From NCBI GenBank assembly GCA_016213885.1, contig JACQZM010000067.1, forward strand, positions 1 through 57,367: a DNA stretch of 57,367 bases, given 5' to 3'. Below the pieces are notes generated by a model. The model saw nothing but the letters and a program-made list of their open reading frames with translations, was not told the origin of the DNA and did no database searches. How positions within the stretch are numbered: the stretch's first letter is position 1; each line of letters opens with the position of its first letter. Both the position numbers and the translations under genes were made by a program. This document shows, piece by piece, positions 459 to 53,550 of the stretch. This DNA is from Candidatus Rifleibacteriota bacterium (GTDB taxonomy: Bacteria > Muiribacteriota > UBA6191 > JACPRK01 > JACQZM01).

Positions 459-4887
<4,429 letters not shown>

Positions 4888-14690: not shown

Positions 14691-14802
14691 TCTTCAAGAC
14701 CTCTCTACGATCCAGGCACCCGCGACGCTCGCTCTGTCAGCGGTCCGCACTGTTCAAGTCTAGCTCGCGGCGAGGCGCGCCGCCGCATCGTGCGCCGGCC
14801 GG

Positions 14803-16962
14803 TCATTGCTTGAACGTCTCGCTGAACTTGGGCGCCTTGTGGAAGATCCTCCGGTACGGGGCGCCGCCGCTGCGCTTCACGTCCTGCTGGAGCTGCTGGG
14901 TCGTGACCGGCAGACCTCGATCGTGCGGCCAGGTGTGTCCGGGCATGTCCCGCCACTGCAGCGGCCACTCCTCCGCCTTGGTCACCCGACGCGCCGCGAA
15001 CCCGTCCCGCACGATGTGGGGGGTCAAGAAGACCAGGAGGTCCTTCTTGTCGGAGTTCTTGTTGCGGCTCTGGAACAGCTTGCCCACGATCGGGAGATCG
15101 CCGATGCCGGGGATCTTCGACACCTGCTTGCCCTTGCTCTCCACCAGGAGCCCGCCGATGACCAGCGTCTCCCGGTCCTTGACCACCACCTCGTTCTCCA
15201 CGGAGGTCTTGGTGAACACCGGCTGCTGGAACGGGCCGAAGCTGATCGTCCCTTCGGCCCCCTCCACTCGGCCCTTGATCTCCGCCTTGAGCTTCAGCGA
15301 GATGAAGTCGCCCTTGGTGATCCGCGGCGTGATCTCCATGGTCAGGCCGAGGTCCTCCGAGGTGAAGTTCGCGATCGGCACCTGACCCGGCTGCGTGGTC
15401 TGGGCGTATCCCTGGAGCACCTGCACCTTGGACCCCACGGTGATCTTGGCCGTGGAGTTGTCGGCGGCCATCAGGCGTGGCGCCTGCAGCACGTTGGACC
15501 GGTTGTCCTGCTTGAACAGGTTGATGAGGTACTGGATCTTCGATCGCTCCGCGAAGTTGCCCTGGGCCGCCGCGTTGACGTCGAAGCTGCCCGGCGCCAG
15601 CACGCCCACGTGCATGCCTCCGGTGGCGGTGCCGCCGAAGAACCCGGAGATCGCCCCGGTGTTGCCCAGGCCGAACACCCGCGTGTTGTCCTGGTCGGCC
15701 GGGATGATGTTGAGGTCGGCGCCGATCTTGTTGGCCATGTTCTGGGTGAGCTCCACGATCAGCCCCTCGACCAGCACCTGGGGCCTGAGCGTATCGAGCT
15801 TCTGCAGCAGCTTCAGGATGTCCTGGTACTTGGACTGGCTGGCCACGACGATCAGCGAGTTGGTCGTCTCGTCGGCGATCACCTTGGTCTGGCTCTGGCC
15901 CTTGCCCTGGCCCTGGCTCGATTCCATGCCGGAGAGGATCTTCTCCACCTTGGTGGCGTCCCCGTACTCCATCCGGTAGTGATGGACGTTCACCCCGTCG
16001 GCCGGCGTCACCGGGTTGTCCAGGAAGTGGACCAGCTCCTCCACCTTGGAGAGCATCTCTCCGGAGAAGCTCGACAGGATCAGCGACTGGGTCCTGGCGT
16101 CCGCGATGACGTTGAACTGCACCGCCGGGTCGGTCGAGGCGCCCACCTTGAACGCCTGGTTGACCTGGTTGGCCACGGCTTCCGCATCGCTGTACTGGAG
16201 GTGGACCACCTTCACCGTCGGGGTGTAGACGTCCGACACGTCCAGCTGCTCGATCAGCGCCACGAAGGTCTTCACGTCCTCCTCCAGGCAGATCAGGAGG
16301 ATCGAGTTGGTCCGGTCGTCGGAGAAGAGCGCCGGCTTGGCCAGCTTGGACTCTCGGCTGCCCGGATCGGCCTCGCCCTCGGCGCGCTTGGTGATGATCT
16401 GGGTGACCTTCTCGGCCAGCGCCTTGGCCTGGGCGTGGTTCACCTTCACGCTGGTGATCTTCCTGACCGGCCCGGACACGTCGAGCTCCTTGATGATCTC
16501 GGCGATGCGTCTCAGGTTCAATTCGTTATCCACGGCGAAGAACATGTTGCCCGGGACGTACGGCAGGATGGTGTTGCCGGGGCTGGTCAAGAACTTGATG
16601 ATCTGGAGGATCTCGTTCACCCCGACGTGCTTGAGCTTGAAGATCTGGATGAACATCCGCTCCAGGTCCTGGCCCGGTCGGCCAGCGGGCGGCGGCAGCT
16701 GCTTCTGGAACGGGGTGAAGGCGCTCTTGTTGGGGGCGTCCTTCTTCACGATCCGCCGTACCTTCTCCCCGATGTACTCGATGGAGAACCCCTTGAACTC
16801 CAGGATCGCCATCAGCAAGAGCTCCGCCTCCGCCGCGGAGATCTTGTTGTTCGCGGGCCCCAGCACCGTCACCTTGCCGGTCAGCGTCTCGTCGACCATG
16901 TAGCTGATCTTGAGCCGGTCGGAGACGAGCTTCACGATCGATCGGATGTCCACGTCCTTCAT
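14803..16962 (-). CDS. gspD: Type II secretion secretin GspD (core; the true 5' end is further upstream, see next feature)
   Basis: N0/N1-type domains (DIRSIVKLVSDRLKISYMVDETLTGKVTV) and a secretin C-domain (VLQAPRLMAADNSTAKITVG, VVKDRETLVIGGLL, IPGIGDLPIVGKLF). Homology continues upstream of the first ATG (..DTFEVE-MKDVD), and no signal peptide exists in this frame. Confidence 0.9.
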   Translation of the reverse strand: MKDVDIRSIVKLVSDRLKISYMVDETLTGKVTVLGPANNKISAAEAELLLMAILEFKGFSIEYIGEKVRRIVKKDAPNKSAFTPFQKQLPPPAGRPGQDLERMFIQIFKLKHVGVNEILQIIKFLTSPGNTILPYVPGNMFFAVDNELNLRRIAEIIKELDVSGPVRKITSVKVNHAQAKALAEKVTQIITKRAEGEADPGSRESKLAKPALFSDDRTNSILLICLEEDVKTFVALIEQLDVSDVYTPTVKVVHLQYSDAEAVANQVNQAFKVGASTDPAVQFNVIADARTQSLILSSFSGEMLSKVEELVHFLDNPVTPADGVNVHHYRMEYGDATKVEKILSGMESSQGQGKGQSQTKVIADETTNSLIVVASQSKYQDILKLLQKLDTLRPQVLVEGLIVELTQNMANKIGADLNIIPADQDNTRVFGLGNTGAISGFFGGTATGGMHVGVLAPGSFDVNAAAQGNFAERSKIQYLINLFKQDNRSNVLQAPRLMAADNSTAKITVGSKVQVLQGYAQTTQPGQVPIANFTSEDLGLTMEITPRITKGDFISLKLKAEIKGRVEGAEGTISFGPFQQPVFTKTSVENEVVVKDRETLVIGGLLVESKGKQVSKIPGIGDLPIVGKLFQSRNKNSDKKDLLVFLTPHIVRDGFAARRVTKAEEWPLQWRDMPGHTWPHDRGLPVTTQQLQQDVKRSGGAPYRRIFHKAPKFSETFKQ

Positions 16963-23700: not shown

Positions 23701-23868
23701 ATGAAGCCCGCACTGAAACCGGTTCCCAGGGATGAGACGGCCCGCTCCGATCCGTCCCCCCGGATCCGGAACCGCTCGAGCCTCTTGCGCCGCAAGATCC
23801 TCAAGGACGCGCGGCAAGCATCCAAGGGGTACATCCTGGCGTTCACCGTGCCCGCTGGCGGAGAGTGA
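23701..23868 (+). CDS. Pup/UBact-like small protein, 55 aa, C-terminus ...PAGGE
   Basis: Not in the ORF track because it is under 60 aa. AAGGAGG at 23683-23689 lies 11 nt before the ATG. By hand count, 46 of 55 codons end in G/C. Product: MKPALKPVPRDETARSDPSPRIRNRSSLLRRKILKDARQASKGYILAFTVPAGGE. Its TGA overlaps the GTG start of the downstream Pup-ligase-family gene (GTGA). Confidence 0.6.
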   Translation: MKPALKPVPRDETARSDPSPRIRNRSSLLRRKILKDARQASKGYILAFTVPAGGE

Positions 23869-24812
23869 CCGAAGGGGCTCGTCTGTCTCCTCGCAAAGGC
23901 GTACTGGGTCTCGAGACCGAGTACGCCTTCGTCTTCACCCCGGAGGTGGGTTCCAGCGCCCCGGTCCAGGAGAGGATCTTCGAGGCGCTCTCCGAGGTTC
24001 TGAAAGGCCAGTGCACCTGTCAGGACGCCGCCTATCGCAAGGGAGGGTTCTTCCTGGCGAACGGCGGCCTTCTTCATTATGAAGCCGAAGCGGACGCTCT
24101 CCATCGGGGGCTCCTGGAGATGGCCACACCGGAGTGCTCCACGGTCCGGGAGGCGCTGGCCCACCACCGGGCCCAGGAGCTCGTCATCGCCAGGCTCCTC
24201 CCGGGCATCCGGGAGCGGCTCACGAAGAGCAGCTTCGCCGGGACCCTGGTGATCGGCAAAGCGTCGTCGGACTACCAGGGACACACGTTCGGCACCCACG
24301 AGAACTACCTGGTGGAGGACCGTCCGGGTCCGGTCCGCCTGGCCGCCCTGGGCCTCTGGATCGTGGTGTTCCAGCTCGTTCGCCTCCCGCTGACCCTCCT
24401 CTACACGGGGCTGACCGTCCTGGCGCTGGTCCTCTTCGGCCTGGTGTTCGCGACCACCATGGCCGTCGCCCTGGGACAGGCGATCCGCCGCCGGCCCACC
24501 GGAGATGAGGCGGTCGAGCCGGCCATGGTCCGGTGGCTCGACCGGGCGATCAAGGGGCTGGTCACCGTGGCCGGCCGCCTCCAGATCCTGGAGCACAGGT
24601 ACCTGCTCCCACCGGCGTCCCGTCTCGTCTCCCCCTTGCTGTTCCACCGGTTCAGGGACGAGCTCGTGACGTTTCTGGTCACCCGGCTGGTGTTCACCGG
24701 ACCGGGCTGGCTCCGGACCGACCGTCCCGGGGAGGGGGCCCGGTTCGTCCTGTCGCCCAAGGCGTCCGCCATCGGCGAGGTCGCTCAGGTGTACTGCGAC
24801 CCGGCGCGATAA
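23865..24812 (+). CDS. Pup-ligase/deamidase family (PafA/Dop-like) protein, N-terminal portion, terminated by an in-frame TAA
   Basis: GLETEYAF, NGGLL...LEMATPEC and GTHENYLV match PafA/Dop landmarks as I recall them ([33 protein letters not shown]). It contains a two-helix hydrophobic insertion at residues about 158-206. Confidence 0.8.
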   Translation: MTEGARLSPRKGVLGLETEYAFVFTPEVGSSAPVQERIFEALSEVLKGQCTCQDAAYRKGGFFLANGGLLHYEAEADALHRGLLEMATPECSTVREALAHHRAQELVIARLLPGIRERLTKSSFAGTLVIGKASSDYQGHTFGTHENYLVEDRPGPVRLAALGLWIVVFQLVRLPLTLLYTGLTVLALVLFGLVFATTMAVALGQAIRRRPTGDEAVEPAMVRWLDRAIKGLVTVAGRLQILEHRYLLPPASRLVSPLLFHRFRDELVTFLVTRLVFTGPGWLRTDRPGEGARFVLSPKASAIGEVAQVYCDPAR

Positions 24813-24902
24813 CCGATCGTCGACCTGAAGAACCTGTTCAGGGGACTCTTCACGCTGCTCTCCCCCAGGAAACGCCTCCACATCGCCTTCTCCGATACGA
24901 AC

Positions 24903-25865
24903 ATGTCGGAGTACGCGACCTGGCTCAAGCTGGCCACCACGCACCTGGTCGTGCGGATGCTCGAGGCGGGCTACCTTCCGGCGGGATGTCGTCTGGACGA
25001 TCCGCTTTCAGCGCTGGACCAGGTCGATCAGGACCTGACGTTCCAGGAGCGGCTGGCGATCCGCGGCGCCCCCGCCCGCACCGCCCTGGAGATCCAGGCC
25101 GCCTTCCTCGACACCGCCCGGCGATACGCCTGCGACCGGGAGCCCGACGACCCCCAGGTCGAGAGGACGCTGGGCGAGTGGGCCCAGGTGCTGGATCTGC
25201 TGGCCCACGACCGGACGGCGCTGGCGGACCGCCTCGACTGGGTGGCCAAGCACGATCTGATGGACGAGGCGGTGGAGCCGGTGGGTTGGGATGCGGTCTC
25301 GAGAGCGCTCGGACCGATCCGCTGGCTGGAGGAGCACAACATCGGCCTGGGTCGGGTGGTCGACCAGCCGGATCAGGTGGGCGGGTTCCTCCAGAAGAGG
25401 CTGGGAGCCGACTTCGCAGCGCTCGCGGAGCGGATGAGGGTCGCCGATCTCGCCTGGGATTCGCTTCCGGCGGTCTACCGGATGTTCTACCAGCTCAAGA
25501 AGATCGACCTCAGGTACCACGAGATCGGGGAGGAGGGCGGTTACTACCTCCAGATGGAGAGGGAGGGCCTGTTCCGGCGGGAGCTCTCGGCCCGGGAGAT
25601 CGAACGGGCGGCGGAGCATCCGCCGGAGCAGACCAGGGCAGCGGCCAGGGGCCACTATATCCTGGAAGCGAACCGGCTCAAGCTCCCGGCCTTGGTCGGC
25701 TGGGACGAGCTGATCGTGCCGTCTCGATTCGCCATCATCTCGATGCCCGATCCGCTCTGCCCGACGCCGCCGGTGGCGCTCGCCGGGTTCGAGTCGGAGA
25801 GCTTCGTCCGGACCGCGCTGCGTCTGGTCTGGTTCATCCCCCGGCTCGTCTCCCGCGGGGCCTAG
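24903..25865 (+). CDS. Pup-ligase/deamidase family protein, C-terminal portion (same frame as 23865-24812; homology starts directly after the TAA at 24813)
   Basis: The sequence upstream of the first ATG, in frame, reads PIVDLKNLFRGLFTLLSPRKRLHIAFSDTN-MSEYATWLKLATTHLVVRMLEAG. This matches the PafA/Dop region RPIINTRDEP...RLHVIVGDSNMSE...LKVGT..LVL.MIE.G. Later, LDWVAKHDL also matches. Confidence 0.8.
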   Translation: MSEYATWLKLATTHLVVRMLEAGYLPAGCRLDDPLSALDQVDQDLTFQERLAIRGAPARTALEIQAAFLDTARRYACDREPDDPQVERTLGEWAQVLDLLAHDRTALADRLDWVAKHDLMDEAVEPVGWDAVSRALGPIRWLEEHNIGLGRVVDQPDQVGGFLQKRLGADFAALAERMRVADLAWDSLPAVYRMFYQLKKIDLRYHEIGEEGGYYLQMEREGLFRRELSAREIERAAEHPPEQTRAAARGHYILEANRLKLPALVGWDELIVPSRFAIISMPDPLCPTPPVALAGFESESFVRTALRLVWFIPRLVSRGA

Positions 25866-41785: not shown

Positions 41786-43843
41786 ATGACAACCGAGAGC
41801 AAGTTCAAACCCTACGTGCCGGCCGACAGCGACATGCCGGAGTTCACCACCCGCGCGCTGATCATCGGACTCATCATGTCCGTGGTGCTCGGCGCGGCGA
41901 ACGCCTACCTGGGCCTGAAGGCCGGGATGACGATCGCAGCCACGTACCCGGCGGCCGTGATCGGGATGGCGGTCCTCAGGATGATGAAGGGGACCGTCCT
42001 CGAGGAGAACTTCGCCCGGACCGTGGGCTCCATCGGCGAGTCGGTGGCAGCCGGCGCGATCTTCACCCTGCCGGCCTTCTACATCGCCGAGATCTGGAAG
42101 GACTTCGCCACGGTGGGTCACTATCTCGAGTCCACGGCGATCATGCTGGCCGGCGGCATCCTCGGCATCATGTTCGTCGCTCTGCTGCGGCGAGTCATGG
42201 TGGAAGACGTGGACCTGCCGTTCCCCGAGTCGGTGGCGGCGGCCGAGATCCACAAGGCCGGCCAGGCCGGCGGCACCGGGGCGGTCTACCTGTTCGGCGC
42301 CATGGTCGTCGGCGCCGTGATCCAGTCGCTGGGGCAACTCCGGGTGATCGCCACCGAGTGGACCGGCTACGTCCTGTTCGAAGCCAAGAAGATCCTCCTG
42401 GTCAAGTCGAAGATCACCGCCACCGCCCAGAGCGGACTCGTCCTGAGCTCGCCAGGGGTGAGCCCGGCCTACGTCGGCGTGGGCTACATCATCGGACCGA
42501 CCCTGGGGTCGCTCAACTTCTCCGGAGGCCTCCTGGCCTGGGGTCTGTTCGTCCCGATCATGACCTACTTCATCGCGCCCGGGGTGTTCCCGAAGCTGGA
42601 CGGGGTCTCCACGTCGCAGTGGATGACGCTCTCCGCCGACGTGTGGCGCTACATCGTCCGGCCGATCGCCATCGGTGGGATGCTCGTCTCGGCGGCCTAC
42701 ACCCTGTTCAAGATGCGCAACAGCCTGATCACCGGGATCGGTCGCTCCATCTCCGACGTCAAGAAGGCCGCGGCCACCGGTGAAGAGATCGTCGCCCGGA
42801 CCGACAAGGACATCGCGTTCAACAAGATCCTGATGGGGATCGCCGGTTCCGCGGTGTTGACCCTCGGGATCTACTACTACTTCGCCCAGAGCTTCGTGGC
42901 CGCCCTGGTCGCCACGATCGTGATGGTCATCGCCGGCTTCTTCTTCGCCGCCGTGTCGGGGTACCTGGTGGGGATCATCGGCTCCTCCAACAACCCGATC
43001 TCGGGGTTGACGCTCTCCACCCTGATCGTGGCGGCGTTGCTGATGGTCGCTCTGGGGATGAAGGGCGAATACGGCGTGGCCGCGGTGCTCGGCGTGGCCG
43101 GGGTCGTGTGCGTGTCGTCCGCCGTGGCCGGCGAGATGCTCCAGGACCTGAAGGCCGGGCACCTCCTCGGTGGTACTCCATGGAAGATGCAGATCGGCGA
43201 CATCATCGGAGTGGCTCTGGCCGCGCTCGTGATGTTTGGCCCGCTGGTGGTGCTGCACCAGGGAGACATCGCCGCGGGGAAGATGGCCAAGGAGGCGTAC
43301 GTGGGCGGCTTCGGCGGACCGAAGCTGGCAGCCCCCCAGGCGAGTCTGATGGCCATGCTCTCCAAGGGGATCGTCGGCGGGGAGATGGCATGGCCCTTGA
43401 TCATCGTCGGGATGCTCATGGGCCTGGGGTTCATCCTGATGCAGGTCAGGAGCCCCATGCTGGTCTCGGTGGGCATGTACCTCCCCCTCGACACGACGTT
43501 CGCGATCTTCATAGGCGGTCTGATCAAGGGCATGGTGGACATGCTCAACGAGCGCCGGAAACACAACGATGCCCAGAAGGCCCGGGTCGAGAACACCGGC
43601 GTGCTGCTCGCGTCGGGTCTGATAGCCGGCGAGGCGCTCATCGGGCTCCTGTTCGCTGCCATGGCGTTCCGCGAGATCGACTACGGCGGCTGGTTGCCCG
43701 GCAAGTTCGCCGAGGGCGTGCTGCCGCTACCGTTCGCCTACAGCCTCCTGGTCTTCGCGTTGCTCATCTGGATCCTCGTCCGGATTCCGGTCGCGAACGC
43801 CGGATCTCCGGATGAGCCGGCTCCTCCGAGCGGCACGTTCTAG
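41786..43843 (+). CDS. OPT family oligopeptide transporter
   Basis: 685-aa polytopic membrane protein with a GAAGGAG RBS. The N-terminus EFTTRALIIGLIMSVVLGAANAYLGLKAGMTIAATYPAAV is typical of bacterial OPT transporters. Confidence 0.9.
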   Translation: MTTESKFKPYVPADSDMPEFTTRALIIGLIMSVVLGAANAYLGLKAGMTIAATYPAAVIGMAVLRMMKGTVLEENFARTVGSIGESVAAGAIFTLPAFYIAEIWKDFATVGHYLESTAIMLAGGILGIMFVALLRRVMVEDVDLPFPESVAAAEIHKAGQAGGTGAVYLFGAMVVGAVIQSLGQLRVIATEWTGYVLFEAKKILLVKSKITATAQSGLVLSSPGVSPAYVGVGYIIGPTLGSLNFSGGLLAWGLFVPIMTYFIAPGVFPKLDGVSTSQWMTLSADVWRYIVRPIAIGGMLVSAAYTLFKMRNSLITGIGRSISDVKKAAATGEEIVARTDKDIAFNKILMGIAGSAVLTLGIYYYFAQSFVAALVATIVMVIAGFFFAAVSGYLVGIIGSSNNPISGLTLSTLIVAALLMVALGMKGEYGVAAVLGVAGVVCVSSAVAGEMLQDLKAGHLLGGTPWKMQIGDIIGVALAALVMFGPLVVLHQGDIAAGKMAKEAYVGGFGGPKLAAPQASLMAMLSKGIVGGEMAWPLIIVGMLMGLGFILMQVRSPMLVSVGMYLPLDTTFAIFIGGLIKGMVDMLNERRKHNDAQKARVENTGVLLASGLIAGEALIGLLFAAMAFREIDYGGWLPGKFAEGVLPLPFAYSLLVFALLIWILVRIPVANAGSPDEPAPPSGTF

Positions 43844-43888: not shown

Positions 43889-44245
43889 ATGGAACCCAAC
43901 GAAGAGAAGCAGACGCTGAACCTCCTGGAGCTGAAACCCCGCCGGAAGCTCGACTGGGAGCCCCAGCCAGGGGATCTGGTGACCCTGCTCGTGCCGAGGT
44001 TCCGGCACCCGTTCGTGGTCCGCTGGATCGTGCCGATCCTGCCGGCGTCACGGTACGTCCGGGTCCATCTGGATCCCATGGGGAGCCTGGTCTGGAACCT
44101 GTGCGACGGCAACACCGCGGTCCTCGAGATGGGTGAGAAGGCGGCCACGAAGTTCGGCGGCGACGTGGACACCTGGTACGACCGGATCGGCCGGTTCCTC
44201 AAGAAGCTGGAGCGAGAGCGGTTCCTGGAGATTCCCCGACCCTGA
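43889..44245 (+). CDS. PqqD-family (RRE-type peptide-binding) protein
   Basis: 118 aa. LDPMGSLVWNLCDGNTAVLEMGEKAATKFGGDVDTWYDRIGRFLKKLERERFLE follows the PqqD pattern (l..vg..iW.lcDG..tv.ei...l...y......v..fl..L...gli). Confidence 0.7.
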   Translation: MEPNEEKQTLNLLELKPRRKLDWEPQPGDLVTLLVPRFRHPFVVRWIVPILPASRYVRVHLDPMGSLVWNLCDGNTAVLEMGEKAATKFGGDVDTWYDRIGRFLKKLERERFLEIPRP

Positions 44246-44293: not shown

Positions 44294-45591
44294 TCAGGCC
44301 GGCTTCTCCTCCTGCTTGCCTCTCTCGAGCACGCCGCCCTCCTGCTGGTCTGCCCGGAGGAGCTGGAAAGCGAAGACCAGCCCCGCGACCCCCAGGCTTG
44401 CGAACATGACCTGGGATGACGCGTAGGTGCCGGTGCGGTCCCGGAGCCACCCGGACAGCAGCGGGAACAGCCCCAGTCCGATGTTCTGGATCATCGTCAT
44501 GAGGCCGAACGCCGTGCACACCACGGACTTGTCCACCACCAGCGGCCCCGACGGCCACATGGCCGCCGGCACCAGGCCGAACGCGACCCCCGGCACGGGA
44601 TCAGGATGAGGGAGCCCACCACCATCAGCGTGGCCCGCCTCCCGATCCGGTCCACCAGGTGGCCCGCGAACGGCGCGCACACCATCGACGCGAAGATGAT
44701 GATGCTGGTCACCCCGGGGGCGGTGCTGAACATGTTGAGGAAGTTGGCGAACACCCGGGCCAGGAAGCCACCCTCGGCCATCGCGGTCTTGGGGAGGTTC
44801 CACTTGTCGTGGAACATGTCCGTGGACAGATCGGTGAACGGGAAGATGGCGGAGTAGAACGTGAGGCAGAGGAGCGTCACGTACCAGTACGACGCGCCGA
44901 ACTTCCGGATGTCGGAGAAGACGATCTTGTCGCCGCCGCCCTCGTCGGCCAGCTTCAGCGCTCGCTCGCCCCTCAGGTCCAGCAGGTTGTAGACGAGGTT
45001 GCACACCAGCGACAGGCCGCACAGGATCGCCGCGGCCCACAGGGCGTACTTGTAGTTGTTAAAGTGGGTGGCGATCGCCTCCTCGGTATTGAAGGCGAAC
45101 AGGGTCCCGAGTCTGCTCAGGGTGAGGGAGATCCCGAAGGCCATGGCCAGCTCCCTCCCCTTGAACCACTTCGCGATGATGGCGCTCTGGGCGACCACCA
45201 GGGACTCGGACCCGGCTCCGAAGATGAACCGCCCCACGAACAGCATCTTCACGCTCGGCGCCAGGGCGACGATCGTGGCGCCCAGCGTCACCAGACCCGA
45301 GAACAGCAGGCTGGCCTTGCGCGTTCCCAGCTTGTCGATGAGCAGGCCGCCGAAGAAGACGATGAAGATCGCCGCGACGGAGTACGCGGTGAACAGGTTG
45401 CCGATGGTCTGCCGGTCGATCCCGAGCTCCTTGATCAGGGTCGGCGCCAGGGCGCTGACCGAGTCGAAGGCGAAGTAGCTGCCGAACGTGAGCATGGAGA
45501 CGAAGAAGAGAAGCACGTACCGGAAAGCGGCCCGGGAGGGGTGGAAGGCGCCGACCTCTTGCGTGGTGGCGCCGCTGGTGCTATCGCTCAT
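44294..45591 (-). CDS. MFS transporter, apparent frameshift near 44600 (two overlapping ORFs 44497-45591 and 44294-45040)
   Basis: N-terminal frame: ..FVSMLTFGSYFAFDSVSALAPTLIKELG.. through ..RATLMVVGSLILIP. The continuation VPGVAFGLVPAAMWPSGPLVVDKSVVCTAFGLMTMIQNIGLGLFPLLSGWLRDRTG lies in another frame. Confidence 0.8.
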
Positions 45592-47282: not shown

Positions 47283-48605
47283 ATGTCGACACCTCGAGCT
47301 TCCATGAAGAACGCTCTGTTCTGGCTCGTCCTGCTGGCGCTTCTCTACATCTGCATGGAGACGGGCTGCTACCTCTTCTTCAAGGCCTGGAGTCGGGCCA
47401 CCCAGTTCTCGTACCGGCCGCTGCCGGTGAGGACCCTTCCGGAGAGTCTGGCGACCCGCACCCGGGTGTTCGCCGACGATCGTCACTCCCTGATCGAGCA
47501 CCACCCGACGCTGGGCTGGCGCCCCCGGGCCGATGGACAGTGGGGCGGGTGCCGGGTGAGCCCGCAACGGCTCAGAGGGGCCAGACCGTACGCGGCCCGA
47601 CCGCTGCCCGGCACGGTCCGCATCGCGGCGTTCGGCGACTCGTACACCTTCGGCGACGGCGTCGACGACGAGCAGACCTGGACGGCCCAGCTCGGGCTGG
47701 CAAGGCCCGGTCTCGAGGTACTGAATTTCGGCGTCCAGGCCTACGGGATGGACCAGTCGTGGTTGCGGTATCGCGAGGAGGGCGCCGCCCGCGGGCCCCA
47801 TATCGTGCTCATCGCGTTCATGCCCGAATCGTGTCACCTGGCAGTCTGCGTGTACAGGCCGTTCTACCTGTTCCAGTCAGGGGTGGTGCTGACCAAGCCA
47901 CGGTTCGTCCTCCAGGGCGATCGGCTCACCCTGCTCCCCAACCCGTTGTCCGAGCTGACCGGCTACGAGCGTCTGATCGCGGACCCCGCCAGCGTCTTGC
48001 CGCGCCTCGGCGAGCATGACTTCTTCTACCACGCCCGGTACCACGAGGGTCCGTTCGACGGCTCCCCGCTGGTGCGGCTGATCAAGGTCGCCCGATCGAT
48101 CTACCACCTCAGATACTCGAAGAACGCGATCCAGGCCGGCTCTCTTCTCAATGCCCGTTCGGAGGCCTACCGGATCTCCGTGGCGATGCTGGAGGGGTTC
48201 TACCGGGAGGTGCTGGCGAACGGATCCGTCCCGGTGATCCTCTTCCTCCCGGACGAGCAATGCTTCAGGGCCCTGGAGACCGACGGATCGGCGCCGTACG
48301 CCTCCCTGCTCGTTCGCCTCTCCGGCCAGGGTCTCCGGTGTCTGGACGCGCTCGAGGCGTTCCGGGGACGACGGCTCGAGACGCCCCATCAGGACGGCAC
48401 GCCGCTCTTCAAGAACGGCCACTACACCCCGACGACATGCAGGCTGCTGGCGGCCCACGTGGCCAGCACCCTGGCCTCGAGCGGGCTGCTCGAACCGTCG
48501 ACCATCGCCCCTGCGGTGGAGCGAGAGCGGGCCATCGACCGCCCCGCAGCTGAAGGCCCGCGCCGGGTCGGAGTCGTACGAAGGCCGACGTCCGATCGAC
48601 GCTGA
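47283..48605 (+). CDS. Membrane-anchored SGNH/GDSL-type hydrolase or acyltransferase
   Basis: Start at ATG 47283 (MSTPRASMKNALFWLVLLALLYICMETGCYLFF, N-terminal anchor). Block I: RIAAFGDSYTFGDGVDDEQTW. Confidence 0.7.
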   Translation: MSTPRASMKNALFWLVLLALLYICMETGCYLFFKAWSRATQFSYRPLPVRTLPESLATRTRVFADDRHSLIEHHPTLGWRPRADGQWGGCRVSPQRLRGARPYAARPLPGTVRIAAFGDSYTFGDGVDDEQTWTAQLGLARPGLEVLNFGVQAYGMDQSWLRYREEGAARGPHIVLIAFMPESCHLAVCVYRPFYLFQSGVVLTKPRFVLQGDRLTLLPNPLSELTGYERLIADPASVLPRLGEHDFFYHARYHEGPFDGSPLVRLIKVARSIYHLRYSKNAIQAGSLLNARSEAYRISVAMLEGFYREVLANGSVPVILFLPDEQCFRALETDGSAPYASLLVRLSGQGLRCLDALEAFRGRRLETPHQDGTPLFKNGHYTPTTCRLLAAHVASTLASSGLLEPSTIAPAVERERAIDRPAAEGPRRVGVVRRPTSDRR

Positions 48606-48646
48606 AGGGCCTGTGATCAGGCCTCGGCCTGGCTGCAGAGTCACCA

Positions 48647-48762
48647 GGGAAGTGGAGGAGATCAGGTTGGAGGTCGCGCTCGGGGGAAGGGAAGAGGAGG
48701 GGATCCGGATTGAGGTCGCGCTCGGGGGCGCGACTCGGACCCGGCGAGGCGCCGGGTCTTGC
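48647..48762. repeat. Second copy of the mosaic intergenic repeat seen at 25935-26103
   Basis: TTGGAGGTCGCGCTCGGGGGAAGGGAAGAGGAGGGGATCCGG, then ATTGAGGTCGCGCTCGGGGG, then the hairpin unit GCGACTCGGACCCGGCGAGGCGCCGGGTCTTGC. Long stretches are identical to the first locus. Confidence 0.85.
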
Positions 48763-48814
48763 AACGGGAGGGCGCATTGACGTGCGGACCGGACAGGACT
48801 ATAGTCGATCAGCC

Positions 48815-49021
48815 ATGACCGATGTGACGCGGGAGCCGCAGCGGTCCGGGAGCTGCGCGGATCCGGCTGCGCCGAGAGGCGGGCTCCTCGGTGAGCTGGG
48901 CAGCTTCCTCCTCGCGCGCAAGTGGTGGCTCATCGTGCCGCTGGCGCTCCTCTTCCTCCTGGTGATCCTGCTGGCCGTGCTCGGCTCGGGCTCCCTCTCC
49001 CGGCCGTTCGTGTACTCCTAG
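48815..49021 (+). CDS. DUF5989/DltX-like small membrane protein, 68 aa
   Basis: Internal ATG of ORF 48710-49021. LLGELGSFLLARKWWLIVPLALLFLLVILLAVLGSGSLSRPFVYS follows the DUF5989 pattern as I recall it (..W.F...RKKWWL.P....LLL..L.VL....A.PFIY..F). Confidence 0.6.
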   Translation: MTDVTREPQRSGSCADPAAPRGGLLGELGSFLLARKWWLIVPLALLFLLVILLAVLGSGSLSRPFVYS

Positions 49022-49031
49022 GGTCCTGCCG

Positions 49032-50078
49032 GTGGATTCCACCTCCATGCCCGACCAGACGCCTCCCGGCCCGGAGCCGTCGCCGTGGCGGAACGTCCGC
49101 GACGGGCTCCTGATCGTCGCGGTCGTGGTGGTCCTGTTCGTCGTCCTCGGGGAAGCTCTCGTCAGGGTGTTGAACAGGGACGGCCATATCCACGATCTCG
49201 AGGTGTTCAAGTACGCGAGAACGCTCCGGATCGACCCGCCCAGAGACGCGCCGGAGCTCCACCACATGCAGCGGCCCGGCGCCCGGGCCGTGCTGCAGGG
49301 CGTCACGGTCCAGATCAACTCGCGAGGGCTCAGGGACGTGGAGCACGCCGCCGGTCCCGCGAAAGGGGTGACGCGGATCGTCGTCCTCGGCGACTCGGTC
49401 ACATTCGGCTGGGGGGTGGCGATGGAGGACACGTACCCCAGGGTTCTGGAGCGCCGGCTCAACGAGACCTCGGCGCCGGCGCGCTACGAAGTGATCAACG
49501 CCGGCGTGGTCGACTACCCGCTCTCACGCATCGTCGCCTTCTACCGACGCGAGCTGGCGAGCCTGCGTCCAGCCATCGTCGTCGTGGGGTTTAGTCTCAA
49601 CCTGGCCAACGAGGCGCCGGAGCGATCGGTGCCCTCGATCCTCGACACGCCGCTCCAGCTTCCGGTCTTCCTCCACTCGCGGTTCGAAAACGTCGCGGCC
49701 CGGTTCGGCCGGACCGGGTCGTTCGATCGGTTCTACCAGGACCTCTACGCCGAGAGCAACCCCGGGTTCGGGAGCTTCGCGAAGCGGCTGACCCGGTTCA
49801 TCGGCGACCTGAAGGCCCGGCAGCAGTCGGTCGTGGTGGCGTCGATCCCCGACGTGGTCCACCTGGAAGAGCCGGCCTACCGGTTCCGGGAGATCGACCG
49901 CAGAGTGTGCGAACTGGCCAGCCGGGCCGGCGCGCTCACCGCGGACCTGTACCCCTCCGTGAAGGGGATCCCGGCTCCGAAGATCGTGAACTCCGCCGAG
50001 GACCGACATCCGAACGCCCTGGGGCACCGCCTCATGGGAGAACACCTGGCCCGGTTCATCCAAAGCTCCGGTCTCTAG
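49032..50078 (+). CDS. Membrane-anchored SGNH/GDSL hydrolase family protein (DltD/PatB-like role possible)
   Basis: N-terminal anchor LLIVAVVVVLFVVLGEAL. Block I RIVVLGDSVTFGWGV. A C-terminal DRHPN-type block (SAEDRHPNALGH) is also present. Confidence 0.8.
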   Translation: MDSTSMPDQTPPGPEPSPWRNVRDGLLIVAVVVVLFVVLGEALVRVLNRDGHIHDLEVFKYARTLRIDPPRDAPELHHMQRPGARAVLQGVTVQINSRGLRDVEHAAGPAKGVTRIVVLGDSVTFGWGVAMEDTYPRVLERRLNETSAPARYEVINAGVVDYPLSRIVAFYRRELASLRPAIVVVGFSLNLANEAPERSVPSILDTPLQLPVFLHSRFENVAARFGRTGSFDRFYQDLYAESNPGFGSFAKRLTRFIGDLKARQQSVVVASIPDVVHLEEPAYRFREIDRRVCELASRAGALTADLYPSVKGIPAPKIVNSAEDRHPNALGHRLMGEHLARFIQSSGL

Positions 50079-51256
50079 AGTCCAAACAGCAACCTCCAGT
50101 AGGGGAGCGCCCGCTCCAGAGGCAGGAAGAACGGGACCCAGAGCAACGATACGGCTGCGAAGGTCAACAGCGTCGAGAACGCTCTGAAGACGGGACTCTG
50201 ATCGAGCGCCTTGCGGGTCGACGGCCGAGAGCCGACGATCCGCTGGCGGAACACCAGCTGGATCGAGCACAGGAGGCCGTGCCCCAGCCCCCAGAACCAG
50301 AACCGGGCGTCGCGGCCGTGCCACGCCCCGCAGAGCACCATGGTCGCCGTGACGGCCAGCACGCCCACCAGCACCGGCCTGGCCCTGAGGCTGGCCACCC
50401 GGAGCAGCCGCGCCGACAGCGGGAGGTAGACGTAGTCCCTGAGCCAGCTGGAGAGCGTGATGTGCCAGCGCCTCCAGAACTCCGTGATGTCGCTGGCCAG
50501 GTAGGGCCAGTCGAAGTTCTCCGACAGACGGTAGCCGAACAGCCGCGCGACGCCGAGAGCGATGTCGCAGTACGCGGAGAAGTCCAGGTAGACCACGAGG
50601 GAAGCCACGGCCACTCCGAGCCACGCTTCGCCCACCGTCGGCAGGTGTCCCGGGGCCATGATCCCGTCCAGCACGCCCCGGAGCGGATCGACCACGAGCA
50701 CCTTCTTGAGGAGGCCGGTGAGGATCCGCCTCGCAGCCCAGAACGCCCTGTCCAGGGAGAGCCCGGACCGGTCGATCCCGCCGGTGAAGCTGGCGAACCG
50801 TTCGATGGGGCCGCTCAGGAACGAGGGGACGAAGAGAACGTACTCCAAGAGCTCCCAGAGCGACCCCACGGCCAGGCGTCGTCTCGCCGCTTCCCAGGAC
50901 ACGTGGATGAGCCGGAACGCCGCATACGAGACCCCGACGATCGGTGCGATCGGTCCGCCGGGTACGCACAGCTCCCTCTGGGCCACCAGCACCACCAGGC
51001 ACAGGACCGTCGCGGCGATCGCTCGTCCCCAGCCGGCCTGGCCGTCCGACCCACCGTCCCCCTCCCGGGGCGTCGGGGGGAGCAGGGCGTGGACCGCCAC
51101 CGTGAGCCCGGCCACGGTCAGCACCGACAGCGGAAAGAACCAGGTCAACAGCGAGAGCGACACGGCGGCGAACGCCGGTCGCTGCCACCGTCCCGGAACG
51201 AGTCCGTGGTAGAGTCCCAGGAAGAGGAGAACGCCGACCCCGCCGAGGAACATCAC
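50075..51256 (-). CDS. MBOAT family O-acyltransferase (DltB/AlgI-like)
   Basis: Polytopic protein with the MBOAT histidine block FWRRWHITLSSWLRDYVYLPL. Its start overlaps the stop of the upstream ligase gene. Confidence 0.9.
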   Translation of the reverse strand: MMFLGGVGVLLFLGLYHGLVPGRWQRPAFAAVSLSLLTWFFPLSVLTVAGLTVAVHALLPPTPREGDGGSDGQAGWGRAIAATVLCLVVLVAQRELCVPGGPIAPIVGVSYAAFRLIHVSWEAARRRLAVGSLWELLEYVLFVPSFLSGPIERFASFTGGIDRSGLSLDRAFWAARRILTGLLKKVLVVDPLRGVLDGIMAPGHLPTVGEAWLGVAVASLVVYLDFSAYCDIALGVARLFGYRLSENFDWPYLASDITEFWRRWHITLSSWLRDYVYLPLSARLLRVASLRARPVLVGVLAVTATMVLCGAWHGRDARFWFWGLGHGLLCSIQLVFRQRIVGSRPSTRKALDQSPVFRAFSTLLTFAAVSLLWVPFFLPLERALPYWRLLFGL

Positions 51257-52956
51257 GGCGAGCGGCGCTGCCGCGCCCAGCGCTCGAGGAACGCGCGACG
51301 GTTCGCCGACCGGGCGATCTTGCCGCTGGAGGTCTTGATCAGCGTCCGGGGAGCCAGCACCCCGACATGGTCCACCGCGCAGTCCAGGCGGGCGAGCACC
51401 CTCAGCTTGATCTCTTTATTGAGCGTCTGGACCGTGGCGGGGACATCGTGGTGGGCGCTCTCCACCAGCACCACCACCTCCGCGGTCCCCTTCTCGTCGC
51501 TGGCGCAGCCGAACGCCACGGCGCGACCTTCCTTCACACCGTCCACGGTCGCCACGATGCGCTCGACGTCGCCCGCGTAGAACTTCCGGCCGCCCACGTT
51601 GATCAGGTCGGCGCTTCTTCCCAGGACGAACAGTTCACCCCCCTCGATGAACCCGATGTCGCCGGTGTAGTACCACCGGTCCGCCAGCACGTCGGACGAC
51701 GCCTCGGGCAAGAGGTGGTACCCGTTGAACAGGAAAGGGCTGGTCAGGGCGATCTCGCCCACGGTGCCGTCATCCACCTCGAAACGGGCCTCGTTCACCA
51801 CCTTCAGCCGGACCTCGTCGAGCAGAGCGCCCGAAGAGAGGACCGTCTGTCGTGTCGGCGCGTCAGGGGAGCACCGCTGGACGGCCCTCCCGAGCTCGAG
51901 GCTCTCTCTGGTCACGTCGATGCGTCGAGGTTCCGGCGCCGTGGACTGGGAGATCGCGTACACGGTCTCCGCCATGGCGTAGCAGGTCCGGAGCATGGAC
52001 CGGTCGACGCCGCACCGCTCGAACGTCGAAAGAAACAGGTCGTGAGTGGGGGCGAGGACCGGCTCGGCGCAGTTCACGAACATCCGCATGGACCGCAGGT
52101 CGAGCCGGTCCAGATCGGCGGGGCGGGCCCGGCTGGCCAGCAGCGCGTACGTGAAGTTGGGCCACCAGGTGAAGGTGCTCCGCTCCCGGGTGATCACGTC
52201 GAGAATCGACAGCGGATCCAGGATCCACACCTGGGGAGGGATGGTGAAGCAGCTCACCCCGCGGGCCAGCGGGAGCAGAAACGACGTGATCAGACCCATG
52301 TCGTGGTACAGCGGAAGCCAGGAGCAGATCCGATCGCGGCCCGTGAGTCCGATCGCCCGCGCATAGGCATCCAGGTGGGTGGTGATCATCCGGTGGTCGA
52401 TGACCACCCCCTTGGGCGTCCCCGTGGATCCGGAGGAGTGCTGCAGGAAGGCGATCCGATCGCCCCCGGGACCCGGGACGGGGCGCTGCCGGATCGGGCG
52501 ATCGAACGCCTCCAGGGTGTGGATCGTTGCCGGGTCCGACCCTGACAGCAGCGGCTCTATCCGGGGGGCGTACTCCTGGTCGACGAGGAGAGTGCCGCTC
52601 TTGTAGCGGGTCAAGAGCGTCGTGAGGTTCTTGACGTACGTCTCCATGTGGGTCTTGAACGTCGGGGTGGCCATGAGGCACGGCACGAGGTCCGCGGCCA
52701 TGGCGCCGACGAACGCGGCCCAGAGCCGGGCTGAACTGCCGGCGACGATGGGGGTCACGGTGCCCGGGGCGATTCCCAGGGCGCCCAGACCCCGGGCGAA
52801 CCCGGCGATCCGGTCGGCCATCTGGCCCGACGTGAGCACCTCGACGTGTCCGCGGGCGTCCTGGAACGAGAAGGTCGCGTCCTCCAGAGCGCCGTCGAGG
52901 GCGTCCAGGATCCGGCTCACCAGGTTCTGCCCGGCGACAGCGTCAGAAGCCGACAT
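51253..52956 (-). CDS. Adenylate-forming enzyme (AMP-dependent ligase; FAAL/DltA-like)
   Basis: Motifs AFLQHSSGSTGTPKGVV, YYTGDIG and SSGKIAR. The start is either ATG 52956 (MSASDAV) or ATG 52983. Confidence 0.9.
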   Translation of the reverse strand: MSASDAVAGQNLVSRILDALDGALEDATFSFQDARGHVEVLTSGQMADRIAGFARGLGALGIAPGTVTPIVAGSSARLWAAFVGAMAADLVPCLMATPTFKTHMETYVKNLTTLLTRYKSGTLLVDQEYAPRIEPLLSGSDPATIHTLEAFDRPIRQRPVPGPGGDRIAFLQHSSGSTGTPKGVVIDHRMITTHLDAYARAIGLTGRDRICSWLPLYHDMGLITSFLLPLARGVSCFTIPPQVWILDPLSILDVITRERSTFTWWPNFTYALLASRARPADLDRLDLRSMRMFVNCAEPVLAPTHDLFLSTFERCGVDRSMLRTCYAMAETVYAISQSTAPEPRRIDVTRESLELGRAVQRCSPDAPTRQTVLSSGALLDEVRLKVVNEARFEVDDGTVGEIALTSPFLFNGYHLLPEASSDVLADRWYYTGDIGFIEGGELFVLGRSADLINVGGRKFYAGDVERIVATVDGVKEGRAVAFGCASDEKGTAEVVVLVESAHHDVPATVQTLNKEIKLRVLARLDCAVDHVGVLAPRTLIKTSSGKIARSANRRAFLERWARQRRSP

Positions 52957-53098
52957 AGATGAACGCCCTGTCGGCCGCCCCATCGAGAAAGAGAAGGATG
53001 AGGAGTATCAAGAGGGTCATGAGCACCAGGCCGATCTTCTTGGCCCTGGGCCCGAGCCGTTCCTCGGGGTCCAGGGCGAGAGGGTCGAGAACGCTCAT
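52943..53098 (-). CDS. DltX-like small membrane protein, 51 aa, C-terminus ...RAFIYVGF
   Basis: Not in the ORF track because it is under 60 aa. Hand translation: MSVLDPLALDPEERLGPRAKKIGLVLMTLLILLILLFLDGAADRAFIYVGF. It has one TM helix, 43 of 51 codons end in G/C, and it sits between the carrier-protein and ligase genes. Confidence 0.55.
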   Translation of the reverse strand: MSVLDPLALDPEERLGPRAKKIGLVLMTLLILLILLFLDGAADRAFIYVGF

Positions 53099-53104
53099 GG
53101 CTCG

Positions 53105-53332
53105 TCACCGCCGGAACCGGGTCACCACCCGGACGATCCGTTCGATCGTGTCGAAGTCGTCCAGGGTCACCTCGGTGATCGGTATCCGGATCGAGAAGCT
53201 GTCCTCGAGGAACACGATCAGCTGGGTGACCGCGAACGAGCTCAACAGCCCGGAGCTGAACAGGGCGTCAGCCGGAGTGATGGTGAGCTCGTCGTCGCGG
53301 ATCAACCTCTCCACGACGAATCGCTGGACCAT
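53105..53332 (-). CDS. Acyl/peptidyl carrier protein, DltC-like
   Basis: Start at ATG 53332 (MVQRFVVERLIRDDELT...). LFSSGLLSSFAVTQLIVFLEDSFSIRIPITEV resembles the D-alanyl carrier protein core (..EEGLLDS(F/M)GTVELL...F....PITEF) as I recall it. Confidence 0.75.
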   Translation of the reverse strand: MVQRFVVERLIRDDELTITPADALFSSGLLSSFAVTQLIVFLEDSFSIRIPITEVTLDDFDTIERIVRVVTRFRR

Positions 53333-53550
53333 GGTGGCTGGCTCGGTCGGTTCTCCCACCTGGGCCTCCCCGGGCGACGGTCGGCGGTTCAGTATACTTC
53401 TCCAGCCGGTTCCGTCAAGCGAACGACCGGCGACCCGGCGACAACCCTCTGGCAAAGCGCACGCGGACGGAGTATCGTGCCGGCGGCTCCAGGGATTGGA
53501 CGGCCCGGATTCCGGGGCGGTTCACTCCAGCAGAGTTCCAGGAGGGTGGA

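Follow-up and report, generated by a model that had tools for sequence, protein, structure and literature searches.

The closest described counterpart of the gene module analysed here, which lies in a 57,367-nucleotide stretch of DNA (contig JACQZM010000067.1, GC content 68%; called the window below, and all coordinates refer to it), is the Dlt system of Firmicutes (DltX-A-B-C-D). Dlt combines an adenylating enzyme and a DltC-type carrier protein with a short, tailless MBOAT acyltransferase, a separate microprotein ending in FxYxxF and a membrane-anchored SGNH enzyme, all encoded in a tight operon. Its adenylating enzyme, DltA, is specific for D-alanine and about 500 residues long. The envelope of diderm bacteria is modified by another group of systems, comprising PatA/PatB(/Ape1) for peptidoglycan, AlgI/AlgJ/AlgF/AlgX for alginate and WssF-I for cellulose. 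Two SGNH-type proteins can belong to one such system, as in the AlgJ and AlgX relay and in the writer-eraser pair of PatB and Ape1, which are encoded in one gene cluster. The PatA/AlgI-type systems use acyl-CoA as donor without carrier, ligase or microprotein, and their MBOATs, approximately 470-490 residues long, carry the shuttle motif as a fusion on two additional helices. In these systems an acyl-tyrosine FxYxxF intermediate links the MBOAT reaction to that of the periplasmic SGNH enzyme (PMC12148441). At the extreme C terminus, FxYxxF is an experimentally defined acyl-shuttle motif that carries D-alanine on DltX and acetyl on PatA; its tyrosine ferries the acyl group between MBOAT and SGNH enzyme (PMC12148441). 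The module in the window resembles Dlt in architecture, with a fatty acyl-AMP ligase (FAAL)-type enzyme in place of DltA. Judged from its sequences, it would work like Dlt but is neither a Dlt operon nor an AlgI/PatA-type system. It probably decorates a surface polymer with an acyl group other than an amino acid, and this route has not been described before. The seven genes are:

53105-53332, minus strand: 75-residue DltC-like acyl/aminoacyl carrier protein with the phosphopantetheine serine in GLLSSF
52943-53098, minus strand: 51-residue microprotein with a single transmembrane segment, ending FIYVGF; DltX-like tyrosine acyl-shuttle candidate with a basic N-terminal flank
51253-52956, minus strand: 567-residue FAAL-type adenylate-forming ligase (Pfam AMP-binding, E = 2e-42; alternative start at 52983)
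50075-51256, minus strand: 393-residue short (DltB-length) MBOAT (Pfam MBOAT, E = 2e-18) with conserved histidines in RWH and WHG and without a C-terminal FxYxxF tail
49032-50078, plus strand: 348-residue SGNH enzyme (SGNH2), membrane-anchored at its N terminus, with Ser122 in GDS, Gly/Asn blocks and DxH near the C terminus
48815-49021, plus strand: 68-residue DUF5989 peptide with a single transmembrane segment, ending PFVYS; second tyrosine-shuttle candidate (Pfam 34.9 bits, cut-off 27)
47283-48605, plus strand: 440-residue SGNH-like protein (SGNH1), membrane-anchored at its N terminus, with GDS, Gly blocks and a C-terminal GHYT His block

All seven open reading frames (ORFs) of the initial annotation are present at these positions. 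It had described a minus-strand operon (50075-53332) of carrier, 51-residue membrane peptide, ligase and MBOAT, which profile searches bear out, and a converging plus-strand set of an SGNH protein, a DUF5989-like peptide and a second SGNH protein, which is upheld by Pfam and the motif blocks. The tight spacing that it proposed for the operon was measured as a gap of 6 nucleotides between carrier and microprotein, an overlap of 14 nucleotides between microprotein and ligase and an overlap of 4 nucleotides between ligase and MBOAT. The stop codons of the convergent MBOAT and SGNH2 genes overlap by 4 nucleotides, and a gap of 10 nucleotides separates the DUF5989 and SGNH2 genes. The Dlt logic ascribed to the locus stands for the architecture and the predicted mechanism; it does not extend to orthology of the whole operon, and the SGNH proteins fall outside the DltD family. 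Five features set the module apart from Dlt: a FAAL-type ligase rather than DltA, two SGNH proteins neither of which is DltD, a second tyrosine-tailed peptide (DUF5989), a diderm host and scores that all lie below the equivalog cut-offs. The two SGNH enzymes and two small peptides had already been recognized as a departure from Dlt, and both pairs were found.

The carrier protein matches Pfam PP-binding with 24.1 bits (cut-off 20.8). Its top NCBIfam model is DltC PRK05087 (47.7 bits, under the cut-off of 68), and its closest Protein Data Bank (PDB) entries are the DltC structures 8jf2_F, 6bug_A and 4bpg (E = 3e-9 to 3e-7, the first two at 3e-9). In the alignment to 8jf2 and 6bug, the phosphopantetheine serine of DltC (LDSM) pairs with the second serine of LSSF in the carrier, and the helix that follows, IRIPITEV, resembles IRVPVSEF of DltC. 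The initial annotation had made its interpretation depend on this serine, which is present, aligned with that of DltC and conserved across all relatives. The carrier also weakly matches a planctomycete ornithine-lipid acyl carrier protein (ACP) model. This identity (OlsH/I) was set aside because the score is 35 bits against a cut-off of 130 and the OlsH/I pathway relies on a GH3-type enzyme and has neither ANL ligase nor MBOAT.

The microprotein has a single hydrophobic segment (residues 17-49) and terminates in DRAFIYVGF-stop. In length, in having one transmembrane segment and in its place in the operon it is like DltX; its match to Pfam DltX (E = 0.064, 13.2 bits, cut-off 25) is below threshold and limited to the C-terminal end of the model. 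The microproteins of the nine loci described below end in F[ILVM]Y[VIAL][GA]F, with F46, Y48 and F51 invariant at the extreme C terminus, and the rest of the protein is only 31-43% identical between loci. Two of the nine match Pfam DUF5989 better than DltX. The 51-residue protein carries the exact FxYxxF shuttle motif of DltX, a point that goes beyond the earlier description of a membrane peptide.

The MBOAT has DltB as its sole NCBIfam match (TIGR04091, 156 bits, cut-off 375), and a PDB sequence search with it matches DltB only. Its AlphaFold2 (AF2) model (mean predicted local distance difference test score, pLDDT, 92.4) has DltB as the nearest structure (TM-score 0.73-0.77, E = 6e-15), followed by HHAT and PORCN (TM-score 0.64-0.73); LPCAT3 and MBOAT7 are also among the neighbours. 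A placement with lipid-remodelling MBOATs had been named as the outcome that would count against polymer acylation, and by NCBIfam, PDB sequence and fold the protein instead groups with DltB. It is classified as DltB-like, not as a DltB equivalog. The second-best structural neighbours, the eukaryotic protein-lipidating MBOATs HHAT and PORCN, demonstrate that an MBOAT fold is able to transfer long acyl chains across the membrane to a substrate on its other side, but they use acyl-CoA and acylate proteins directly, without tyrosine shuttle, SGNH enzyme or carrier. The C terminus reads YWRLLFGL, and neither the window MBOAT nor its relatives have an FxYxxF tail. The list of homologues contains about 35 proteins of 370-397 residues (45-54% identity), after which the score drops from 249 to 181 bits. 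Below the drop are AlgI-like MBOATs of 470-490 residues, and the examples read out end in FIYFQF, FVYFQF or FIYFKF. Unlike these PatA/AlgI-type proteins, the 393-residue window MBOAT is of a split type in which the shuttle tail is not fused to the enzyme, a second point absent from the initial annotation. A short MBOAT without a fused FIYFQF-type tail is the situation in which Dlt needs DltX. The homologues are all unnamed or carry the automatic labels 'AlgI' or 'lysophospholipase'.

The ligase had been called FAAL-like rather than DltA-like, and this assignment is borne out by its length of 567 residues, its motifs and its best-scoring models and structures. The top NCBIfam models are the fatty acyl-AMP ligase PRK09192 (312 bits, cut-off 600) and other FAAL/FadD32-type models, all under their cut-offs, and no DltA model is among the top 25 matches, which are FAAL, FACL and related models. 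The best PDB matches are the FAALs 3pbk (Escherichia coli FAAL, 209 bits), 7r7e-g and 3kxw; FAALs are present and DltA structures absent among the top 60. The sequence carries the ANL core motifs SSGSTGTPKG, YAMAE, YTGD, GRSADLI and SSGK together with the FAAL-typical YHDMGL. The interval from YAMAE to GEI comprises 69 residues and is crossed by the 3pbk alignment with small gaps only. The stretch follows motif A5, the place of the FAAL-specific insertion (A5-A6), and ANL enzymes other than FAALs have about 45-50 residues there. By motifs and insertion the ligase classifies as FAAL-type, yet it lies outside the curated cut-off of the FAAL family.

FAAL-ACP modules such as 3pbk, the Legionella FAAL 3kxw, FadD32/Pks13 and the olefin synthase loading domain 7r7e share the ligase length, the core motifs, the insertion region and an adjacent presumed carrier with the window. 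In those systems the acyl chains go to cytoplasmic polyketide synthases (PKSs), non-ribosomal peptide synthetases (NRPSs) or lipid-assembly enzymes, whereas here they would pass to a DltC-like carrier and then to a transmembrane MBOAT. AlmE-AlmF-AlmG, which modifies lipid A with glycine in Vibrio cholerae, resembles the module in that a Dlt-like ligase and carrier have been repurposed for a Gram-negative envelope. AlmE is DltA-like and loads glycine, AlmG is an LpxL-type acyltransferase of the cytoplasmic face, and unlike the module Alm has no MBOAT, microprotein or SGNH enzyme. No description of a FAAL- or carrier-dependent MBOAT system outside Dlt was found in the full-text literature searched.

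SGNH2 matches Pfam Lipase_GDSL_2 with 47.9 bits (cut-off 32.9), and its catalytic residues are invariant in 40 homologues. The structures most similar to its AF2 model (pLDDT 94.6) are CgnD and carbohydrate esterases that act on acetyl-xylan and acetyl-mannan. Distant sequence homologues carry the AlgX SGNH domain, a feature shared with the PatA/AlgI-type systems. SGNH1 has a hydrophobic N-terminal segment at residues 6-34 and a sub-threshold match to Pfam GDSL_2 (19.6 bits), and its GDS is invariant in the alignment with relatives. Neither SGNH protein has a DltD match in Pfam or NCBIfam at E <= 0.1.

The order carrier-microprotein-ligase-MBOAT is kept in eight other metagenomic loci (L081/L082, L083/L084, L085, the P0012 locus, L088, L122, L218 and L219), so that carrier and ligase are co-operonic in nine loci, in contrast to the PatA/AlgI-type systems, which have neither. 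In pairwise comparison the MBOATs are 45-58% identical, the ligases 49-58% and the carriers 45-56%. The ligase is fragmented in L088 (8121-9994) and the MBOAT in L219 (11145-12232), which may reflect decaying copies of the module or assembly errors, and the L218 locus ends inside the ligase. SGNH genes are adjacent or nearby in every core locus, in differing arrangements. In L122 the SGNH genes lie directly downstream on the same strand, so that all six genes share one strand, and in L083 a single SGNH gene with an AlgX domain lies directly upstream and overlaps the start of the carrier gene. The SGNH genes are convergent with the operon in the window, L085 and L219 and lie a few kilobases away in L081, L088 and L218. 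SGNH2 orthologues (46-54% identity) are found next to the operon in L085, L218 and L219; an SGNH1 orthologue (35% identity) adjoins the MBOAT gene in L085, with related genes in L218, L081, L088 and L122. The differing order and orientation argue that selection, rather than shared synteny, keeps the SGNH genes with the core. Co-conservation of the genes, the third point on which the initial annotation had staked its reading, is thus seen as recurrence of the core and SGNH genes in eight further loci. The gene content of the module, the homologies of its products, the conservation of their motifs and this co-conservation are direct observations.

The module lies among GT4 and GT2 glycosyltransferases, a Wzx-like flippase and PMT_2 GT-C enzymes in L081, L088, L218 and the P0012 locus. 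A partial counterpart whose MBOAT belongs to the same clade is found in L086 (8648-11140; also L087), where a microprotein (59 residues, FVYVGF) and an MBOAT occur without carrier or ligase. This pair is located within an ABC-transporter-type polysaccharide cluster with GT2, GT4, epimerases, Wzm/Wzt-like proteins, DUF1919 and methyltransferases, and its divergent neighbour of 387 residues has no Pfam match.

The DUF5989 peptide (Pfam PF19451) was compared with relatives collected by an exhaustive phmmer search, which returned 37 without the query and one spurious repeat protein, P0126, which was discarded as a repetitive, spurious translation. A word-indexed homologue search with the 68-residue peptide returned only itself, and tblastn against plasmids returned nothing. 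Nearly all of the 37 relatives (P0127-P0163) end in FxYxx[F/L/I], mostly PFIYTLF, after a single transmembrane segment. The window peptide scores 66 bits against a custom hidden Markov model (HMM) built from 36 relatives. An hhalign comparison of the DltX-like microproteins with DUF5989 gave 93% probability (E = 3e-7) with the membrane segment and the motif aligned. As the DUF5989 family shares FxYxxF, the system appears to have two tyrosine-shuttle candidates. The DUF5989 HMM was also compared with six-frame ORFs of ten family loci. Hits at E < 1 were the window peptide, the DltX-like peptides and small ORFs in L219 (ending SPDSPFRY, right after the SGNH2 orthologue), L085 (SPDGPFSYVLQ, near the operon) and L218 (SPDRPFTYVLQ, between two SGNH genes). 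The ORFs of L085, L218 and L219 are alike in sequence and also resemble the window peptide. The L085 ORF, 42 residues long, has no Pfam DUF5989 match at E <= 0.1 and matches the custom HMM weakly. With a DUF5989-like peptide accompanying the SGNH genes in four loci, the second tyrosine-tailed peptide recurs in the family without being universal, and a role as a second shuttle is plausible.

Codon-position composition supports the reality of the seven genes. GC at third positions is 0.83-0.93 and at second positions 0.35-0.51 across all seven, the 51- and 68-residue ORFs included; this pattern is typical for genes of the contig, and the ORFs, small ones too, therefore look like real genes. Two promoter-like sites were found in the 6.8-kilobase region, where 0.4 were expected from shuffled sequences; they are consensus matches and no proof of function. 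They are listed with the secretion genes that bear on the host:

53391-53418, minus strand: sigma-70-like promoter match TTGACG-16-TATACT (10/12), about 60 nucleotides upstream of the carrier start; consensus match only
48777-48805, plus strand: sigma-70-like promoter match TTGACG-17-TATAGT (10/12), directly before the start codon of DUF5989; consensus match only
13011-16962, minus strand: type II secretion/type IV pilus-like ATPase (T2SSE) and GspD-type secretin, the secretin itself at 14803-16962

The secretin and its ATPase indicate that the host has an outer membrane, in agreement with the "apparently diderm" genome of the initial annotation, and the relative L219 encodes LpxD and a TonB-dependent receptor. 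In a diderm host the acceptor is not expected to be a classical teichoic acid.

The interpretation judged probable, with appreciable room for error, is that the module serves a diderm bacterium as a Dlt-type system for acylation across the membrane that depends on a carrier protein. The chemical steps that follow are proposed by analogy with the demonstrated Dlt and PatAB chemistry (PMC12148441), and the acyl group and the acceptor are likewise inferred. In the cytoplasm, the FAAL-type ligase would adenylate a carboxylic acid that has no α-amino group and couple it through a thioester bond to the phosphopantetheine arm of the carrier. That the acid lacks an α-amino group is considered most likely in view of the FAAL-type ligase; a fatty acid would be the most likely donor, with a chain length that is not readable from the sequence. 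The loaded carrier would dock on the cytoplasmic face of the short DltB-like MBOAT, and the conserved histidine of this enzyme would catalyse acyl transfer to Tyr48 in FIYVGF of the microprotein, at the periplasmic face of the membrane. From this tyrosine, an SGNH enzyme anchored in the membrane and facing the periplasm would then take the acyl group to its catalytic serine and pass it to a hydroxyl of an envelope polymer. The polymer would most likely be a secreted or surface polysaccharide or glycoconjugate; a glycan is favoured by the four relatives located in glycan clusters, the L086 pair in another and the likeness of SGNH2 to carbohydrate esterases. The second SGNH protein and the DUF5989 peptide with its PFVY tail could form a second relay step, as from AlgJ to AlgX, or an arm for removal or editing, as with Ape1, an esterase whose gene lies next to those of PatA/PatB.

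Several observations weigh against this interpretation. Every NCBIfam score falls far short of its curated cut-off, so the proteins are not orthologues of any characterized enzyme. The McyG A domain is among the PDB matches of the ligase, and because FAAL-like enzymes such as McyG also activate non-fatty acids, the substrate need not be a fatty acid. No DltD, PatB or AlgX structure is among the top 50 neighbours of the SGNH2 model, which are CgnD and esterases for carbohydrates or other substrates, and the esterase-like fold does not distinguish a transferase from a hydrolase. Glycosyltransferase genes are absent next to the module in the window, L083, L085 and L219, and with none adjacent in the window the case for a glycan acceptor comes from some of the relatives only. 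The window DUF5989 peptide ends in SLSRPFVYS at a genuine TAG stop, 2 residues short of the consensus PFIYTLF. The similarity between the single-transmembrane peptides is partly driven by hydrophobic composition, and the retrieved stretches of L081, L083, L088 and L122 showed no DUF5989-like ORF.

Ordinary D-alanylation of the Dlt/Dra type, as in Gram-positive bacteria and a few Gram-negatives such as Bordetella, would place D-alanine on an anionic envelope polymer. The characterized proteins most similar to the carrier, the MBOAT and the microprotein are DltC, DltB and DltX, respectively, but the ligase has the FAAL hallmarks (YHDMGL, 567 residues and an alignment to 3pbk that runs through the insertion) with no DltA among its top matches, the locus contains no DltD-family protein, and the DltB and DltC scores were put at less than half of the equivalog cut-offs. 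D-alanylation is accordingly rated the least probable of the explanations considered. A different donor within the same architecture deserves more weight, although it too is rated unlikely: a short or functionalized acid (hydroxy, aromatic or branched) would be placed on a polysaccharide in the manner of acetyl, succinyl or 3-hydroxybutanoyl decoration. Enzymes with non-fatty substrates (McyG, 4r0m) belong to the FAAL-like clade, and a sister system in L101/L118 pairs a carrier and an LnmK-like loader with the same set of short MBOAT, microprotein and SGNH protein, which suggests that some MBOATs of this group receive small acyl groups from a carrier. In the known structure of DltB the tunnel is also narrow (PMC8892547). 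A longer chain is favoured by the best-scoring models and structures of the ligase, which are all long- or medium-chain FAALs, and by the next-best structural neighbours of the MBOAT, HHAT and PORCN, which are long-chain protein acyltransferases.

The two remaining explanations remove the polymer or the plus-strand genes from the system. If the FAAL and carrier fed a lipid or secondary-metabolite pathway, the MBOAT would acylate a membrane lipid or small molecule (wax-ester, lysophospholipid or aminolipid-like) and the SGNH proteins would be lipases or esterases with no polymer involved. FAAL plus ACP is the classic lipopeptide/polyketide loading module, in L218 a ketoacyl synthase and a further ACP are encoded about 9 kilobases from the SGNH genes, close to the edge of the locus, the carrier has its weak ornithine-lipid match, and LPCAT3 and MBOAT7 appear among the MBOAT neighbours. 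The flanks in the window, however, are free of PKS, NRPS and lipid-synthesis genes, the carrier is DltC-like and not like those of fatty acid synthases or PKSs, and four relatives hold the module inside glycan clusters. The combination of an invariant extracytoplasmic FxYxxF microprotein and an anchored SGNH protein is a signature of trans-envelope polymer acylation (PMC12148441), and a lipid or metabolite pathway is regarded as improbable. Still less credence is given to the proposal that SGNH1, DUF5989 and SGNH2 are unrelated neighbours and that the system consists of the four minus-strand genes only. These three genes lie on the opposite strand with their own promoter-like site, and DUF5989 usually accompanies carbamoyltransferase genes, not MBOATs. 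Against their being bystanders, SGNH2 orthologues and SGNH1-like genes recur beside the operon in L085, L218, L219 and L122 with varying order and orientation, unlike the other window neighbours (the major facilitator superfamily, MFS, and M20 genes), which are not conserved in the relatives. Every known MBOAT polymer-acylation system, moreover, needs an SGNH partner (PMC12148441).

DUF5989 is usually encoded (loci L090-L097) after a carbamoyltransferase gene and a gene for a membrane protein of about 136 residues; P0138 looks like a read-through fusion of DUF5989 with the C terminus of a carbamoyltransferase. Sets of carbamoyltransferase, SxtJ-like protein, DUF5989 and GDSL protein resemble the window in that a genuine DUF5989 member has a GDSL/SGNH neighbour, and differ from it in that the window has no carbamoyltransferase and its peptide is located between two SGNH genes beside an MBOAT operon. 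SxtL of the saxitoxin clusters is a GDSL-type protein. The gene order in these clusters, sxtI-J-K followed by sxtL, and the gene sizes have been reported (PMC2679770), and from its matching size and position SxtK would be a DUF5989 member. DUF5989 is not mentioned in the full-text literature searched. The motif and gene context suggest that it is a tyrosine 'group shuttle', possibly for carbamoyl groups, which gives a family without known function a concrete role hypothesis. A bolder and more doubtful proposal than the short-acid variant is that the module lipidates an extracytoplasmic target, a polysaccharide or protein that would receive a fatty acid of medium or long chain length by way of the carrier, the split MBOAT and two successive tyrosine-shuttle microproteins, and that DUF5989 proteins generally, including the SxtK-sized peptides after carbamoyltransferases, are shuttles that hand acyl or carbamoyl groups to extracytoplasmic SGNH enzymes.

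The split arrangement extends beyond the family of the window. The DNA pattern ENFxWPY...I..FW is not family-specific and selected 120 metagenomic loci (L098-L217), consisting of one true member (L122) and 119 wider short-MBOAT loci. A separate adjacent small ORF ending in FxYxxF, for example GQSSKFIYIDF or STFIYRGF, accompanies the approximately 400-residue MBOAT in 65 of the 120. The motif is fused in 74 of 80 MBOAT loci from named genomes, where the clear split cases are a Bacillota metagenome-assembled genome (MAG; L001) and a Bryobacteraceae MAG (L016). A short MBOAT with a separate tyrosine-tailed microprotein is thus common in soil-type metagenomes. A profile scan of genome contigs with the MBOAT alignment gave, among the matches listed, only AlgI-like proteins of 32-42% identity and no named genome with the full module. 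The sister system mentioned above (L101, 400-5330; L118, 920-5420) encodes a carrier and an LnmK_N_HDF-like protein of the acyltransferase/decarboxylase type; its other products are an SGNH-like protein, a short MBOAT and a microprotein with the C terminus STFIYRGF, and in L118 it adjoins a GT2 gene. An LnmK-type enzyme makes propionyl-ACP in leinamycin biosynthesis, and L101/L118 may be a carrier-dependent system for polymer acylation with short, propionyl-like groups. A 2025 mechanistic paper describes MBOAT pathways other than Dlt as having no carrier and no DltX-like microprotein (PMC12148441); as regards the microprotein, the split short-MBOAT loci contradict this statement.

The full Dlt architecture would also be present in diderm bacteria, where it is combined with another class of loading enzyme; a sister group has an LnmK-like loader. 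The groups that bacteria may attach to surface polymers would extend beyond acetyl and D-alanyl, and a wider acyl range bears on surface charge, hydrophobicity, the biofilm matrix and resistance to phages and antimicrobial peptides.

Two large proteins without Pfam matches are conserved beside the module in one sub-clade, formed by L081 (5948-7744 and 13691-15757), L088, L218 and the P0012 locus. One is about 595-608 residues long and divergent from the carrier gene and the other about 688-700 residues; neither is present in the window. A 695-residue ORF of L122 occupies the position corresponding to the large sub-clade protein, a likeness by position only, and a 686-residue protein of L085 is weakly similar (27%) to the 595-residue type. 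L055, from an Anaerolineaceae MAG, encodes a related carrier (63 bits) and ligase (232 bits) at 2051-4067, about 6 kilobases from an AlgI-like MBOAT; none of the other 79 named-genome loci has such a carrier and ligase. The two may be a distant or an unrelated FAAL-carrier pair.

Of the window neighbours, the OPT transporter, PqqD-like, MFS, M20, FecR-like and TlpA-like genes have no counterparts in the relatives and lie outside the module, and the flanking MFS and M20 genes were rejected as module parts on this ground. Rfam finds no RNA family in the window. The MFS transporter gene (44294-45591, minus strand) is apparently frameshifted, with overlapping ORFs 44497-45591 and 44294-45040 that both match MFS_1, and is either a pseudogene or the product of a sequencing error. 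The small PqqD-like protein (43889-44245, plus strand) is encoded directly after the OPT-family oligopeptide transporter gene (41786-43843, plus strand) and is possibly a peptide-binding recognition element of the type that serves ribosomally synthesized and post-translationally modified peptides (RiPPs). A homologue of Pup ligase (PafA/Dop-like) at 23865-25865 on the plus strand is split over two consecutive ORFs, one matching the N-terminal and the other the C-terminal part of the Pfam model. The contig is rich in Ser/Thr kinases and TPR/HEAT proteins.

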